From Candidatus Oxydemutatoraceae bacterium (lineage in GTDB: Bacteria; Pseudomonadota; Gammaproteobacteria; Poriferisulfidales; Oxydemutatoraceae): a DNA stretch of 64,000 nt. Below, one piece after another: positions 12,926 through 46,644 of the stretch (positions within the stretch are counted from its first letter, which is position 1; each line of letters begins with the position of its first letter). The notes beneath the pieces are model-generated. The model had not been told where the DNA came from. It did no database searches and saw only the letters and a list, made by a program, of their open reading frames with translations. The position numbers and the translations under genes were made by a program. The DNA is taken from assembly GCA_965218975.1 (NCBI GenBank), contig OZ244717.1, forward strand, positions 1,984,001 through 2,048,000. The letters are read 5' to 3'.

Positions 12926-13037
12926 ATTGTCATATCATAGTGGTAGAGGTATTTTCAGTGGCTGAACCCTACGGGCAAATCCAACTCCTTAAGGTGCCAA
13001 ATTCAGGACCACCTCTGTCGATAAATAAAAGCAGAAT

Positions 13038-13066
13038 ATTCTATTAAAAAAAAGTTAAACAGTCAA
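13038..13066 (-). promoter_or_regulatory. sigma70 promoter of the rpsL operon
   Basis: TTGACT (13066-13061), 17-bp spacer, TAGAAT (13043-13038). Confidence 0.8.
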
Positions 13067-13178
13067 TATGCTTGTACGATGCCACCCTAAATGGGATTTC
13101 TGAAGGGCTTCGGGGGAAGCGTTCGGCAAGTAACATTCGGATCGGTGCTTTCTGTCCGTTGCCGGCATGAGGACGGCG

Positions 13179-13284
13179 CAGGGTGAGACGCGCCCGGAAA
13201 ACCGATCGGTTTTCAGCGGCGAACGACCCGACAAGGATGTCGGGGCTGGCGCTCATTGACAGAACCAAGTCTCGTCATGGACGA
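13179..13284 (+). repeat. ~107-bp hairpin unit, copy A1
   Basis: CAGGGTGAGACGCGCCCGGAAAACCGATCGGTTTTC...GTCATGGACGA. Confidence 0.95.
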
Positions 13285-13285
13285 G

Positions 13286-13392
13286 CAGGGTGAGACGCGC
13301 TCGGAAAACCGACCGGTTTTCAGCGGCGAACGACCCGACAAGGATGTCGGGGCTGGCGCTCATTGACAGAACCAAGTCTCGTCACGGATGAC
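13286..13392 (+). repeat. Hairpin unit, copy A2 (tail extends to ~13438)
   Basis: Tandem to A1, same unit with substitutions. Confidence 0.95.
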
Positions 13393-13637
13393 AGACACTT
13401 TGCTGATAACACACCAACAAACACAAAACGGTTTCATAACCGGTCATTGAATGCTTCCGTATCGGCGAATAGCAGGTCTTCTGCATGATCGATACAATCT
13501 TCTTGGACGGTGCGGTTGAAGCGCTCGATGTGCGCGTTCATTTTTGGACACTTGGGATAGGTCAGCCACTGCTCAATCACGGGTGATTCCCGGATGAGCC
13601 GGGCAAACTGTCCTTGAAACTCACTCCCGCCGTCCGT

Positions 13638-13744
13638 CAGGGTGAGACGCGCCCGGAAAACCGATCGGTTTTCAGCGGCGAACGACCCGACAAGGACGTC
13701 GGGGCTGGCGCTCATTGACAGAACCAAGTCTTGTCATGGACGAC
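13638..13744 (+). repeat. Hairpin unit, copy A3 (tail extends to ~13832)
   Basis: Same unit, joined at CAG within the L-T-D-G-G codons. Confidence 0.95.
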
Positions 13745-14127
13745 AGGCACTTTGCTGAAAATCCGGCAGCAAACACAAAATGGTTTCATCAGCTCAAAGA
13801 CTTTACTGCTGCCGAAATTCTGCCAGGCGCAGGAATGCGGCTGCGTTGCGGCTGTTACAGCGGTTGGTTGCCACTGCTATTGCCATTCGGGTATAGACAT
13901 CAATGGCCATTAAGACGTAGCGGCGCACTCCGTGCTGATAACGCACAATCGTATCCAGGGCGATGCAATGCCCCGGATACTGTGCTTTGAAGTGTTTCGG
14001 CTTGCGTGCCCTGCAACGGCGCTTGAACAATCGTTTTGTTTGTCCTTTGGCATTCAGCCGCTGCGGAATACAGCGCATTTCATCCGGCGCATCCGCGATC
14101 AGGCGCGCAATCGCGCGGACACTCGGG

Positions 14128-14234
14128 CAGGGTGAGACGCGCCCGGAAAACCGATCGGTTTTCAGCGGCGAACGACCCGACAAGGATGTCGGGGCTGAGG
14201 TTCATTCGCAGAACCAAGTTTCGTCACGAACGAC
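14128..14234 (+). repeat. Hairpin unit, copy A4 (in frame with transposase, one TGA)
   Basis: Between KPFC and PCPS codons; ORFs 14202-14414 and 13803-14183 share a frame. Confidence 0.95.
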
Positions 14235-14324
14235 AGACACTTTACTGACAACACGGCAACAAACACAAAACGGTTTCATCAGCTCAAAGATTTTACTGCT
14301 GCCGAGATTCGGATAAGCCTGGCA

Positions 14325-14431
14325 CAGGGTGAGACGCGCCCGGAAAACCGATCGGTTTTCAGCGGCGAACGACTCGACAAGGACGTCGGGGCTGGCGTTC
14401 ATTGACAGAACCAAGTCTCGTCATGGACGAC
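14325..14431 (+). repeat. Hairpin unit, copy A5 (tail to ~14452)
   Basis: Same unit. Confidence 0.95.
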
Positions 14432-14842
14432 AAGCACTTTGCTGACAATCCGCTGGCACCTCTTACGCGGCACTTTGCCGCGATCATGCAAGGCGCTGAG
14501 GCCAGTGCGGCGATAACGCCGGCGCCAGCGGTACAAAGTACTGCGACCGATCTTGAATGCGTTCGGGAGTTACAACCCTCCCAAAATAATAGGGCATCAT
14601 ATTTCTGTTGAGCTGTTGTGTTCATAATAGCCTCTATATAGCCTCTATTTTTGAAGCAAAATTGGCTCATATAGAAACCTTTGATGCGGTGGCCGATGTG
14701 CTGATATTGCATATCGGTTACCTTTTTGAGTCGTGCCGTGAATCCCACATGTATCTGGCACTGTACACTGGATAAAAATGGGCTAAAATTAAGGTTTTAA
14801 TCCGGTTATCCGTACATTTCCGGAGATCAGATTGGATGGAAT

Positions 14843-25279: not shown

Positions 25280-26023
25280 TGTACGATGCCGATACATTCC
25301 GGATTTTTTAGGGTTGTTTGGGATCAACATCCGGCACGGCGGCTGTCAACCTAAACCGGCATGCGGTCGGCGCATATTGTACCACTTCGAATATGACCAT
25401 AAACACTGTCCCGTCCTAGTGGGATATCTTAGGCGCAGACGACGGATTTCCCTAATCAGGTTTGCGGCCGGATAAAATGCGCTGTATTCCGCAGCGTCTG
25501 AATGCCAAAGGACAAACAAAACGACCGTTCAAGCACCGTTGCAGGGCACGCAAGCCGAAACACTTCAAAGCACAGTATCCGGGGCATTGCATCGCCCTGG
25601 ATACGATCGTGTGTTATCAGCACGGAGTGCGTCGCACCATCTTAACGGCCATCAATGTCTATACACGTATGGCAACAGCAGTGGCAACCAACCGCTGTAA
25701 CAGCCGCAGTGCTGCCGCATTCCTGCGCCGGGCAGAATTTCGGCAGCAGTAAAGTCTTTTGAGCTGATGAAACCGTTTTGTGTTTGTTGCCGGATTTTCG
25801 GCAAAGCGTCTGTCGTCCATGACGAGACTTGGTTCTGTCAATGAGCGCCAGCCCCGATGTCCTTGTCGGGTCGTTCGCCGCTGAAAACCGATCGGTTTTC
25901 CGGGCGCGTCTCACCCTGCACCGCCCTCATGCCGGCAACGGACAGAAAGCACCGGTCCGAATGTTACTGCCGAACTCTTCCCTCAAAGTGCTTCAAAAAT
26001 CCCATTTAGGGTGGCATCGTACA
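25280..26023. mobile_element. Hybrid IS481-like remnant (locus B): minus-strand 3' end of one subtype fused to plus-strand remnant of the locus-A subtype
   Basis: Minus 25280-25410 reads LWSYSKWYNMRRPHAGLG*...SGMYRHRT; plus 25470-26023 reads MRCIPQRL...CIALDT...RPHAGNGQK...SHLGWHRT; both ends start TGTACGATGCC. Confidence 0.82.
25812..25918 (-). repeat. Hairpin unit, copy B1 (tail to ~25722)
   Basis: Reverse complement of the unit; antisense to the plus-strand transposase as in the other loci. Confidence 0.95.
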
Positions 26024-27680: not shown

Positions 27681-27771
27681 ACTTGTACGATACCACCCTA
27701 AATGGGATTTTTGAAGCGCTTTGAAGGAAGCGTTCGGCAGTAACATTCGGATCGGTGCTTTCTGTCCATTG

Positions 27772-27878
27772 CCGGGTGAGATGCGCCCGGAAAACCGATC
27801 GGTTTTCAGCGGCGAACGACCCGACAAGGACGTCGGGGCTGGGGCTCATTGACAGAACCAAGCCTCGTCATGGACGAC
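27772..27878 (+). repeat. Hairpin unit, copy C1
   Basis: Same unit. Confidence 0.93.
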
Positions 27879-28121
27879 AGACGCTTTGCCGAAAATCCGG
27901 CAGCAAACACAAAACGGTCCCATAACCGGTCATTGAATGCTTGCATATCGGCGAATAGCAGATCTTCTGCATGATCAATACAATCTTCTTAGACCGTACG
28001 GTTGAAGCGCCGATGTGTGCATTCATTTTCGGACACCTGGGATAGGTCAGCCATTGCTCAATCACGGGTGATTCCCGAATGAGCAGGCAAACTGTCCTTG
28101 AAACTCACTACCGCCGTCCAT

Positions 28122-28228
28122 CAGGATGAGGCGCGCCCGGAAAACCGATCGGTTTTCAGCGGCGAACGACCCAACAAGGACGTCGGGGCTGGTGCTCATT
28201 GACAGAACCAAGTCTCGTCATGGACGAC
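28122..28228 (+). repeat. Hairpin unit, copy C2
   Basis: Same unit, same site as A3. Confidence 0.93.
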
Positions 28229-28313
28229 AGACGCTTTGCCGAAAATCCGGCAGCAAACACAAAACGGTTTCATCAGCTCAAAGACTTTACTGCTGTCGAA
28301 ATTTTGCCCGGCG

Positions 28314-28418
28314 CAGGGTGAGACGCGCTCGGAAAACCGACCGTTTTCAGCGACGAACGACCCGACAAGGATATCGGGGCTGGGCTCATTGACAGAACCA
28401 AGTTTCGTCATGGACGAC
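28314..28418 (+). repeat. Hairpin unit, copy C3
   Basis: Same unit with small deletions. Confidence 0.93.
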
Positions 28419-28763
28419 GGGCGTTTTACCGGGTTGCGGCCGGACGCGCTAGCGCCTCTGGCGCGGTGCTTTGCCGCGGTCATACAAGGTGCGCTGAGTC
28501 CAGTGCGGCGATAACACCGCCGCCAACGGTACAAAGTACTGCGACCGACCTTGAATGCGTTCGAGATTACACCCCTCCCAAAATAATAGGGCATCATATT
28601 TCTATTGAAGTTTAGAGCGCTCATGAGCCTCCATTTTGTTAGCTGAATTGGCTATTTTATAGAAACCTTTGATGCGGTGGCCGATGTGTTGATATTGCAT
28701 ATCGGTCACCTTTTTGAATTAAGCCGTGAGTCCCATATGTATCTGGCACTATACAGTTAAACA

Positions 28764-28867
28764 GGCTATTCTATAGAAACCTTTGATGCGGTGACCAATG
28801 TGCTGATATTGCATATCGGTCACCTTTTTATTGAAAAGTATTTGTCCGGTATGTATCTCACTATGCA
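28764..28867 (-). mobile_element. Extra 5'-end fragment of a related IS copy
   Basis: Repeats GGCTATT.TATAGAAACCTTTGATGCGGT...GATATTGCATATCGGTCACC from 28650-28715; ends in degenerate ...CACTATGCA. Confidence 0.7.
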
Positions 28868-28879
28868 CCGGCCAAGGTT

Positions 28880-45014: not shown

Positions 45015-45097
45015 AGCATCTCCCAATAAATTAAAAATAAACAAAATATCCGGTAGTAATAACAGTGTATCAAAATCACCCCTCATTTGCTCGCGCA

Positions 45098-45979
45098 TGT
45101 ACGTGTCCAATACATTCCGGACAAATGAGGAAGTTGCCGGGCAATGACTTGATACGGGGTCATGTAGTTTAATCCCCGGTGGGAGCGCTCATCGTTGTAG
45201 CGCTGCAAGTAATCAATTATCTGCCGGTTAAACTCACCGATGTCTTCAAGCAGTAATGCTTCCCGATAGCCGATAAACTCTTCCCGGATCGTACGGTTGA
45301 AGCGCTCGTTATAAGCATTCATTTTGAGGCATTTCGGGTAAGTATAGCAGTGGCGGATCTTTCGTTGCCGAAGGTATTGATCGAATGCGCCTTGAAACTC
45401 ACTGCCGTTGGCAGTCAATACTTGCTCGATTTTGCCCGGCAAGATCGTTTGCACCAAGGCGGCAAACCGAGCCGCTTGGGCGCTATTGCCGCGAGGCACT
45501 ACCGACGCGAAAGGCAAAGTAGCTTGAATGATCCGTTGCAGTCGGAATATAGCGTCGGCTGCCTTCGATAAAACGGATAATAGTATCGAAAGCAACACAG
45601 TGTCTGACATGCCTCGCACCGGCTCTGCTATTCAGACGCGGGCGCGGCGACTTACGTCACAACGGTTTAGCTCGACCTTTGCGGTCCAAGCGCTGCGGTG
45701 AGCAACGCATCCGACCCGGCGCATCCGCGATCAGGCGCGCAATCGTGCAGACACTCGGGCAAGGTGAGACGTACCCGGAAAACCGATCGGTTTTCAGTGG
45801 TGAACGACCCGACAAGGATGTCGGGGCTGGGGTGCATTCGCAGAACCAAGTCTCGTCACGGACGACAGGCACTGTGCCGACAATCCGCCGACAAACACAA
45901 AACGGTTTCATCATCTCTTCATCATCTCAAAGACTTTACTGCTGCCGAAATTCTGCCCGGCGCAGGGTGGCATCGTACA
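45098..45979 (-). mobile_element. Hybrid IS481-like remnant (locus D): third subtype, capped by a locus-A-type 3' end
   Basis: VLTANGSEF, NAYNERFNRTIREEF, YNDERSHRGL...SGMYWTRT; ends TGTACGTGTCC (45098) and GGGTGGCATCGTACA (45979). Confidence 0.82.
45760..45866 (+). repeat. Hairpin unit, copy D1 (open in transposase frame)
   Basis: Inside ORF 45657-45914, between KPFC and PCPS. Confidence 0.93.
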
Positions 45980-46215
45980 CTTATGGAAAGAAAAAGACCA
46001 GCGATATCCGATATTGGTCGTAACTGTGACCTTCCCCTCATAAAGACGACCAAAATGATTGAGAGGTTTCCGTACATTTACAAAATAAAAGGCAACTATT
46101 TGCACCCTGTAAGAGAAAATCAAGGAGTCTGGGGTTCCTCTTCTTTTACTCAAATTTTATTAACGTTTAAGCCATAACTAGAATTGCTGTAGTCTTATAC
46201 AAGCAATCTATTTTC

Positions 46216-46644
46216 TCAGGAAGCATCATAAGATATGATTTCTTCTCGAACTTGGTTCATTCTTTGACGTTTTTTTTGTTTGTTACTGATTTCGCACTGC
46301 CAGATTATCAGCACATGCCATCCTGCTTTTTCTAATTCTTTGAAGTTCTCCAAATCTCGTTGCTTATTTCGGTTGATTTTCTTACGCCAAAAATCCCTAT
46401 TCGTTGTAGGCAATTTTCCTCGCGGGCAATCGTGACCATGCCAAAAACAACCGTGAACAAAAACAACAGTTTTATATTTAGGTAACACGAGATCGGGATT
46501 TCCAGGCAAATTGCCGACGTGTTTTCTGTATCTGAATCCTCCGGAGAACAAATACTTGCGGACTACGGATTCCGGTTTCGTATCCTTGCCGGATATATGC
46601 GACATGATCTCGCTGCGTTTCCGGGCGGAATAAATATCATTCAT
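46216..46644 (-). CDS. vsr: Very short patch repair endonuclease
   Basis: RSEIMSHI, DTKPE, LPGNPD, FVHGCFWHGH, IWQCE. Confidence 0.95.
   Translation of the reverse strand: MNDIYSARKRSEIMSHISGKDTKPESVVRKYLFSGGFRYRKHVGNLPGNPDLVLPKYKTVVFVHGCFWHGHDCPRGKLPTTNRDFWRKKINRNKQRDLENFKELEKAGWHVLIIWQCEISNKQKKRQRMNQVREEIISYDAS

Follow-up and report, generated by a model that had tools for sequence, protein, structure and literature searches.

A hairpin-rich repeat with a fixed 5′ border has replaced transposase sequence at four sites of an IS481-like element in a Candidatus Oxydemutatoraceae genome

The window, meaning the whole stretch of 64,000 nucleotides that was analysed, covers positions 1,984,001 to 2,048,000 of contig OZ244717.1 (assembly GCA_965218975.1) of Candidatus Oxydemutatoraceae bacterium, whose genome is one closed contig of 2.081 Mb with a GC content of 47.7% and a completeness of 99.4%. 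At 13073..14768 it holds a copy (copy A) of an insertion sequence (IS) resembling IS481, with its transposase on the minus strand, recognized by its module map, its termini, and matches to NF033577 and rve/rve_3. Its transposase gene is broken at four sites, called delta, gamma, beta and alpha, by a unit of ~107 nt that is the conserved core of a hairpin-rich element of ~135–143 nt containing no gene. Read along the plus strand, copy A consists of left end, delta units, C-terminal fragment, gamma unit, middle fragment, beta unit, native tail, alpha unit, N-terminal fragment and right end. The unit, and the manner in which it came to occupy these four sites, are the subject of this report.

The left end (LE; 13073..13178, plus strand) carries the terminal inverted repeat and the final transposase codons (RRPHAGNGQKAP...). 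It is followed by unit delta-1 (13179..13285, plus), which starts with CAGGGTGAG, and by its tandem copy delta-2 (13286..13391, plus) at a period of 107, the joint between the two being bridged by a contig of run X1 over 13255-13343. The delta tail of 46 nt (13392..13437, plus) comprises ~32 nt from the element's 3′ part and 14 nt of native beta flank (MKPFC), and it ends in CAT. Next come the transposase fragment CF (13438..13639, minus; LTDGGSEF...FNDRL), unit gamma (13638..13743, plus) and the gamma tail of 90 nt (13744..13833, plus), which contains the element's 3′ part, native beta flank (LGSSKIFELMKPFC) and 13 nt of the native alpha region. The middle fragment MF (13834..14130, minus; PSVRAIARLIADAP...AAAFLRL), whose final GGGCAG is native according to an empty copy, leads to the ~135-nt element at beta (14131..14265, plus), composed of the unit from GGTGAG and ~32 nt more. 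The limits of the beta element were set by comparison with the empty beta site of the IS copy at genome 210298. Beyond it lies the native transposase segment (14266..14324, minus; CQAYPNLGSSKIFELMKPFC) that is the source of the "tail" at other sites and that reads ...YPNMSAPKIYYLLKPWC... in intact relatives. Unit alpha (14325..14430, plus), a 22-nt alpha tail that is a truncated 3′ part of the element (14431..14452, plus), and the right part (RE; 14453..14768, minus) with the transposase N-terminus (...STLYRWRRRYRRTGLSALHDRGKVPRKRCQR) and the right terminus complete the copy.

The native sequence at these sites can be read directly, since the genome keeps IS copies in which they are empty. Comparison with such paralogues from the same genome showed that unit and tail replaced 18–57 nt of transposase at the four sites. 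At delta, between FNDRL and RPHAG, six empty copies read LE, 27 nt and CF, coding ...FNDRLWEYLAWYKLHRPH...; when the site is filled, 22 nt coding WEYLAWYK, between GCAG and CAT, are replaced by one or more units and the 46-nt tail. The empty delta joint is also found in contigs of runs X2 and X3. At gamma, between AAAFLRL and LTDGGSEF, two empty copies show that ~36–43 nt coding TLAVLPPPVKYI gave way to the unit and its 90-nt tail. The copy at genome 210298 has both beta and alpha empty. The native beta is KPFC-HRHQLL-CPSV, of which 18 nt (HRHQLL) were exchanged for ~135 nt, and its length equals that of KPWC-EERGLP-CPKP in a relative; at alpha, ~50–57 nt of that copy are replaced by the unit and a 22-nt tail. 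An earlier note, made from the letters of the window alone, had proposed that ectopic units replace DNA rather than insert into it, and the empty sites bear this out at delta, gamma, beta and alpha. Its estimate of 8–12 missing codons was right for delta and gamma.

The empty beta site also delimits what was inserted there. GGGCAG before GGTGAG is native transposase, native sequence resumes at CAAAACGG (MKPFC), and the inserted element runs from GGTGAG to ...CAACAAACA, or the 107-nt unit plus ~32 nt. Two descriptions given in the note thus stand in part: the 5′ border is fixed, but the CAG of CAGGGTGAG that had been counted into it is native flank of the site at 14128; and the tail is indeed variable, but its first ~32 nt belong to the inserted element and not to the transposase. 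These ~32 nt contain a motif of 10–11 nt (ACAATCCGSC-like) that is expanded to differing lengths between copies, forming a nested microsatellite, as seen at window 13392-13420, at genome 279380-279440 and downstream of genome 326244. Considering the flanks, the delta copy carries its 14 nt and the gamma copy ~58 nt of beta-native flank (the latter including the 13 nt of alpha region), and both also carry 1–4 nt of the flank on the 5′ side of beta. Since such sequence is native only beside beta, both copies descend from a beta-type donor. The alpha copy ends inside the element.

Joint overlaps were read by comparing donor, recipient and product. At delta they are GCAG on the left (4 nt) and CAT on the right (3 nt), at gamma CA (2 nt) and GCGCAG (6 nt), and at the right of alpha ATCCG (5 nt), so that five of the six secondary joints have a microhomology of 2–6 nt; by our own arithmetic, the chance of an overlap of at least k nt at one joint is ~(k+1)/4^k. 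Joints between tandem units fall at GG or CAGG-like overlaps. Short overlaps had been noticed from the window, and such overlaps are seen here at delta, gamma and right alpha. The ends of the unit and of the 135–143-nt element are not inverted repeats, and the joints show target loss and no target duplication, in agreement with the earlier opinion that the unit itself is no standard MITE (miniature transposable element with inverted repeats). A role of the unit start as a pseudo-IS end was considered and rejected, only AGGGTG being common to it and the IS terminus.

The two ends of the unit clearly behave differently. For 318 units, 44 classes of upstream flank were distinguished, three of which are a preceding unit (120 units) and 41 of which are non-tandem (198 units). 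Within the 4-nt window G-C-A-G before GGTGAG lie the 5′ entries of 31 of these 41 classes; six more start at offset 4–8 and four are truncated at 8–38. The 3′ exits, on the other hand, fall into 70 classes spread across unit-plus-tail positions 22–197 (175 nt), and the claim of a single fixed end is upheld. Several flank classes are variants of one homologous site, leaving about two dozen distinct contexts. Among these contexts are nested truncations of LE, at LE positions ~105, 91, 60, 43, 30 and 0, all of which end at the unit start.

All ten copies of the unit listed earlier for the window were recovered (89.6–100% identity, E values of 1e-35 to 1e-51). Nine start on the plus strand, at 13179, 13286, 13638, 14128, 14325, 27774, 28122, 28314 and 45760, and one occupies 25813-25918 on the minus strand. 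Every one lies inside an IS481-like remnant and, as had been observed, in one orientation relative to the transposase, the unit running opposite to it. A profile search of the genome gave 328 units (165 plus, 163 minus), 303 of them full length, grouped in 96 loci. Modules were cut from copy A for mapping (LE, unit U, tail T, CF, MF and RE), and nearly all units were found between LE and RE of the IS481-like element, following a single canonical order, LE-U(n)-T[1-46]-CF-U(n)-T[1-77+]-MF-U(n)-T-U(n)-RE. Arrays between LE and RE contain 1–7 units, and many IS copies are internally deleted, the shortest form being LE-U-RE. When the loci were compared with intact relatives by blastx, transposase remnants appeared in the canonical orientation at 79 of the 96; five have some same-strand match, and 12 have no protein match, seven of these retaining a piece of LE in the module map. 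For annotation, about 90 odd "transposase fragment plus repeat" loci of this genome are explained as one family.

A few arrays depart from this arrangement. Those at genome 149158-149830 and 153059-153849 have neither transposase remnant nor LE, and in one of them the unit start abuts a different short repeat (…CCAGTGAAT) that elsewhere flanks LE. At genome 1035012-1035698, three tandem repeats of 302–303 bp adjoin a 43-nt stump of LE, each consisting of unit positions 1–81 and 221 nt of other sequence.

The carrier is a decayed IS481-like element. The window fragments have NF033577 (IS481) as best family, at 36, 36 and 82 bits against a cut-off of 224 bits. Intact relatives of 356–386 aa occur in 10 of 18 genomes of the same family; they also score under the cut-off with NF033577 (184 and 190 bits), with IS3 as the second-best model (109–114 bits). 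Pfam finds rve, rve_3 and HTH_32. The genome itself yielded 118 IS481 transposase fragments, none above 90 of the 224 bits, and no intact transposase was found there, the longest open frame on a genome match of the CF query being 246 aa. LE termini beginning TGTACGATGCCACCC occur at 93 places with unrelated outer flanks, the right terminus of copy A is ...CACTGTACA, and RE termini end in ...CACTRTACA. By reading, the terminal inverted repeats (TGTACGATGCCA... and ...TGGCACTGTACA) agree at 10 of their first 12 positions. Exact target duplications of 5 bp flank 5 of 37 LE/RE pairs and none of 500 shuffled pairings, which indicates that the carrier behaved as a transposon. The internally deleted relics, such as LE-U-U-RE of 664 bp at genome 1959013 with the duplication TCAGT, and LE-U-RE of 541–616 bp, have both ends, no transposase, small size, a dispersed distribution and target duplications, as do MITE-like non-autonomous IS elements.

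Three further remnants lie in the window. Remnant C (25467..26023) runs in the opposite direction, with its transposase on the plus strand, and comprises LE, the one minus-strand unit, a gamma-type tail and MF; its CF segment has been lost between two units. In remnant D (27684..28829, minus), LE breaks off near position 91, where unit 27774-27877 is attached, and more units follow at 28122-28227 and 28314-28417. The terminal ~100 nt of RE stand twice, tandem-like, at remnant D (14670-14767, 28658-28755, 28772-28869; "RE <16> RE[223-280]"). The remnant at 45083..45980 (minus), to which the NF033577 match of 82 bits belongs, is of a second IS481-like lineage and includes the open reading frame (ORF) of a transposase C-terminus (45083-45619), an MF-like piece, unit 45760-45865 at the homologous beta site, and a tail. 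This tail runs into GGGTGGCATCGTACA, the last 15 nt of an inverted LE terminus (45966-45980), through a joint with an AGG overlap, and the right side of the remnant accordingly ends in an LE-type end (window 45941-45980). The adjoining ORF 46216-46644, beginning MNDIYSARKRSEIMSHI..., may presumably encode a protein like the very-short-patch-repair endonucleases.

How many events produced this distribution? Several joints recur unchanged: 55 units share LE|U, 28 share T|U, 25 share CF|U and 15 share MF|U, and a second LE joint is common to 11. Because the four main joints are identical across 15–55 loci each, most copies must have been inherited or exchanged rather than newly made, and a few dozen founding events suffice. 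The description of a cassette "repeatedly overwriting" its host transposase is therefore right as to the overwriting, seen at four sites, and overstated as to its repetition. Unit variants are not partitioned by site, and the order in which the sites were filled is for this reason not readable from the unit tree. Identity between sites within one IS copy (93.8%) exceeds that of the same site across copies (91.5%; 227 units). All three combinations of two filled and one empty among delta, gamma and beta occur: delta empty with gamma and beta filled, gamma empty with delta and beta filled, and beta (together with alpha) empty with delta and gamma filled. These combinations, the likeness of units within a copy and the unpartitioned variants demand exchange among sites as well as among IS copies. 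Across 12 complete copies, pairwise identity of the units (92–94%) equals that of LE, CF and RE (92–95%), so that nothing points to a subsequent sweep of the unit by itself.

These data are best read, at a probability of roughly 0.55, as microhomology-primed template switching with the unit's structured 5′ border as its anchor. Replacement combined with joint microhomology is the signature of illegitimate copying during replication or repair, and together with the beta-type flank in the delta and gamma copies it agrees with the copy-and-overwrite process with one defined end that had been proposed from the window. Folded as single-stranded DNA, the unit reaches -26.9 kcal/mol (z -4.1; none of 200 shuffles as stable), and its fold starts from base 3, at the fixed border; z-scores of -1.2 and -0.3 were obtained for two IS segments nearby. 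Secondary copies in the main IS family share the orientation of the donor, as expected for switching within aligned copies, and the concentration of events in IS481-like DNA would follow if the partner was found by IS homology.

In this sequence of events, the element would first have lodged in the transposase gene of an IS481-like element at beta, replacing 18 nt, and from there a limited number of copyings would have carried it into other places of the same IS family. Each copying may have been a microhomology-primed template switch, in replication or in gap or break repair, between paired IS copies. Synthesis would cross the donor between two points, one fixed, at the unit's structured 5′ border, and one variable, in the tail downstream, and would rejoin the recipient at a microhomology of 2–6 nt a few dozen bases off, thereby overwriting a short native stretch. 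A 3′ end might prime at the unwound border of the structured unit in the paired IS copy and leave after a variable distance, or a polymerase arriving from the tail might drop off on leaving the fold. Disabled IS copies would then have spread passively, transposed in trans by a transposase that is now extinct, while recombination or gene conversion shuffled filled and empty sites between them. Slippage could have multiplied the units in tandem, at periods of ~98, 107, 152–163 and 197 nt, and recombination from unit to unit could have removed the interior, leaving the MITE-like LE-unit(s)-RE relics.

The repair background of the genome is suggestive at most. RecA and MutS are present, and the only SbcD-like match (genome 1290403-1290744, in an open frame of 421 aa) reaches 49 bits against a cut-off of 77.65, so that the canonical hairpin nuclease SbcD may be missing or divergent. 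Replication-strand bias was set aside as evidence: with the cumulative GC skew at its minimum near 270 kb and its maximum near 1.5 Mb, 60 of the 96 unit loci are oriented alike with respect to the replichore, a mild bias that equals the usual co-orientation of transposase genes and decides nothing.

Several observations weigh against template switching at the border. The left alpha joint has an overlap of only 0–2 nt, a preference is seen for the 5′ border but not for the 3′ base of the fold, and just about six exits fall at unit positions 71–81. Outside the window, at genome 326244, 1216597 and 1751423, there is a junction class in which the unit has the same direction as the transposase of the second IS481-like lineage. 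This inverted class resembles a near-clean insertion of almost the whole 143-nt element with 3–5 nt of beta-type flank on each side; compared in length with relatives, it has lost little or no target sequence, and a discrete mobile unit would be expected to appear in this form. Beta may have been the first site or may be just one that was entered via GCAG and CAAAA microhomologies, and a targeting mechanism would equally explain founding events confined to IS481-like DNA. The mechanism is moreover read from scars. Only the 5 of 37 elements mentioned above retain a target duplication, and no read or contig covers the entire 1.7-kb mosaic.

Another way to arrive at such joints would be through breakage without any templated copying. 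Hairpin-directed breakage at the 5′ border, one-sided resection, microhomology end-joining, unequal crossing-over and gene conversion might together have made the joints as deletions and duplications of one ancestral arrangement. The nested LE truncations that end at the unit start, and the microhomology at the joints, would be at home in such a scheme; the sub-threshold SbcD-like match allows that hairpin processing may be atypical, and unequal exchange can yield tandem periods. However, deletion and duplication alone cannot put the unit with beta-native flank into the interval of LE and CF or into that of CF and MF at a cost of only 22–43 nt, and a copy step is therefore needed at delta and gamma. 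We regard this explanation as unlikely.

A bolder form of the preferred reading is more doubtful still. It is conceivable that the element is an enzyme-free "overwriter", a structured DNA whose 5′ border serves as a built-in switch point by which host replication or repair would write it, with some of its flank, over short stretches of homologous IS481 transposase genes. Such an element would be a hyperparasite, spreading through an IS family and killing it by biased conversion and not by transposition.

It is also improbable that the element was a non-autonomous mobile element with one enzyme-defined end, served by an HUH, IS91 or Helitron-like enzyme or by a reverse-transcribing one that read into the flank and has since been lost. 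In its favour, one-ended rolling-circle capture in IS91/ISCR elements and Helitrons leaves just such a fixed 5′ end and a variable 3′ end with donor flank attached, and the inverted junction class holds very nearly the 143-nt element and shows no clear loss of target. A search for HUH/RAYT and reverse transcriptase genes had been suggested with the original observation. In this closed and nearly complete genome no Y1 HUH transposase (PF01797) and no reverse transcriptase (PF00078) was matched, with live controls in 6 of 14 and 3 of 14 genomes, respectively; the IS91-type Y2 models PF04986 and NF033538 gave no match either, but with the control genomes equally silent. The four sites of copy A are replacements with joint microhomology and not insertions, and such target loss with microhomology is not what rolling-circle transfer or retro-insertion gives. 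The flanks contain no conserved target motif, and the loss of 18–57 nt at the four sites is unlike insertion into a specific target. The units, besides, are as diverged as the IS backbone, and the one junction class in inverted orientation to the transposase is evidence against copying from the mRNA of the IS. Thus, of three mechanisms put forward earlier, hairpin-linked template switching fits, and rolling-circle/HUH transfer and reverse transcription do not.

Very improbable, in our judgement, is a function favoured by selection, in which the element would inactivate or regulate the IS family or its neighbours, whether as a structured RNA, a terminator, a protein-binding array or a silencer. 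The hairpins are conserved, the units break the transposase frame at four places, and at three of the four sites of copy A the frame of the unit continues in frame into the downstream transposase fragment. Against this, Rfam at gathering score returned only four tRNAs in the window and nothing at E values up to 1 within 13000-14800, and no covariation was found over 261 distinct units (RNAalifold and pair counts), with no surplus of pair-preserving changes (32 versus 28, paired columns) and almost no compensatory pairs. Together with RNA fold z-scores of only -2.2 and -2.3, these results speak against an RNA gene. Among public runs listed as containing the sequence, none was an RNA run. The unit is as diverged as the dead IS DNA around it, and searches for relatives were empty: an exact 24-mer had no match in a collection of one genome per species, a degenerate 37-mer none in metagenome contigs and none in viral contigs, and a query of 222 nt gave no BLAST match in 40 related genomes. 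Among the collections searched, the element is found only in this genome. The first hairpin was tried as a lead to its origin and dropped, as the four exact matches of its 21 nt (two Streptomyces and two metagenome-assembled Clostridia genomes) are near chance for a palindromic 21-mer.

That the mosaic is an assembly chimera of collapsed repeats is scarcely credible. The 1.7 kb is not covered by any one public contig, contigs from short reads end 28–30 nt into each unit, and at the three native|unit-start joints X1 contigs reach only 28–30 nt on the unit side. But the genome is one closed contig, the joints unit|unit, tail|CF, tail|MF, tail|RE are all crossed by difference-free X1 contigs that have at least 31 nt on each side, X2 and X3 contigs from another study bridge the left flank into LE, and the same architecture recurs at many loci with differing flanks and private substitutions.

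If template switching at the border is indeed responsible, this genome would have kept, for a bacterium, a natural record of templated replacement that was anchored by structure and mediated by microhomology, consisting of some two dozen independent joints that were later amplified by a transposon burst. The 5′ border of the unit would be a sequence with which to test at what places replication or repair changes its template, and for what reason. One concrete way would also be shown for an IS family to become disabled and, as the genome decays, to end as MITE-like relics that bear minisatellites.

With respect to known systems, a full-text literature search found no description of this element or of anchored overwriting inside an IS. 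Replication-based template switching at microhomologies is known as slipped misalignment or copy-choice in bacteria (E. coli) and as fork stalling and template switching or microhomology-mediated break-induced replication (FoSTeS/MMBIR). A structure-driven process, synthesis-dependent microhomology-mediated end joining, has been described (PMC5728401), as has a slippage-prone symbiont genome (PMC4948707). The present joints resemble those of template-switch systems in their overlaps of 2–6 nt, in templated insertion with short target loss, in structure at the switch point, and in a nearby or homologous donor. What sets them apart is the use of one donor border in some two dozen contexts, followed by a transposon's amplification of the products; we know of no bacterial case of one donor border so reused and amplified.

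IS91/ISCR elements and Helitrons have one fixed end, another that is variable and drags donor flank, and no target duplication. Here, in contrast, target DNA is lost, the joints have microhomology, no target tetranucleotide is seen, and no Y2/Rep match was obtained (with silent controls). The carrier shares with the IS481 family (NF033577) a DDE (rve) transposase, imperfect inverted repeats starting with TGT, and 5-bp duplications. It differs from it in having no intact copy, in intact relatives that fall below the curated cut-off, and in internal repeat arrays, which are not a feature of the family. BOX-type repeats (boxA-boxB(n)-boxC) and the hairpin-bearing variable-number tandem repeats of endosymbionts are intergenic, non-coding and free of transposase remnants. 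Like them, the present element has a head, tandem hairpin units and a tail, varies in copy number by locus and is non-coding; to our knowledge, overwriting of a host gene with donor flank has not been described for them.

The nearest described kind is BrickBuilt of Porphyromonas gingivalis, a species-restricted, non-coding minisatellite inside a MITE (PMC4596501). Its tandem units lie between a "leader" and a "tail" with small inverted-repeat ends, in many copies with a variable number of units (PMC4596501). The unit is 23 nt there and 98–107 nt with hairpins here, and there are 19 carriers there and ~90 here; the present case differs, moreover, in its IS481-like carrier with transposase remnants, its four sites filled by replacement, and its fixed 5′ border (PMC4596501). 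With conserved head and tail, variable tandem units, restriction to one species and no coding capacity, the arrays have the features of modular minisatellites of the BrickBuilt/BOX kind. The element is thus a variant of a kind already known, a minisatellite inside MITE-like IS relics, and what is new here is its replacement of native sequence read from empty sites, the donor site, the microhomologies, the quantified asymmetry of its ends, the inverted class and the target duplications.

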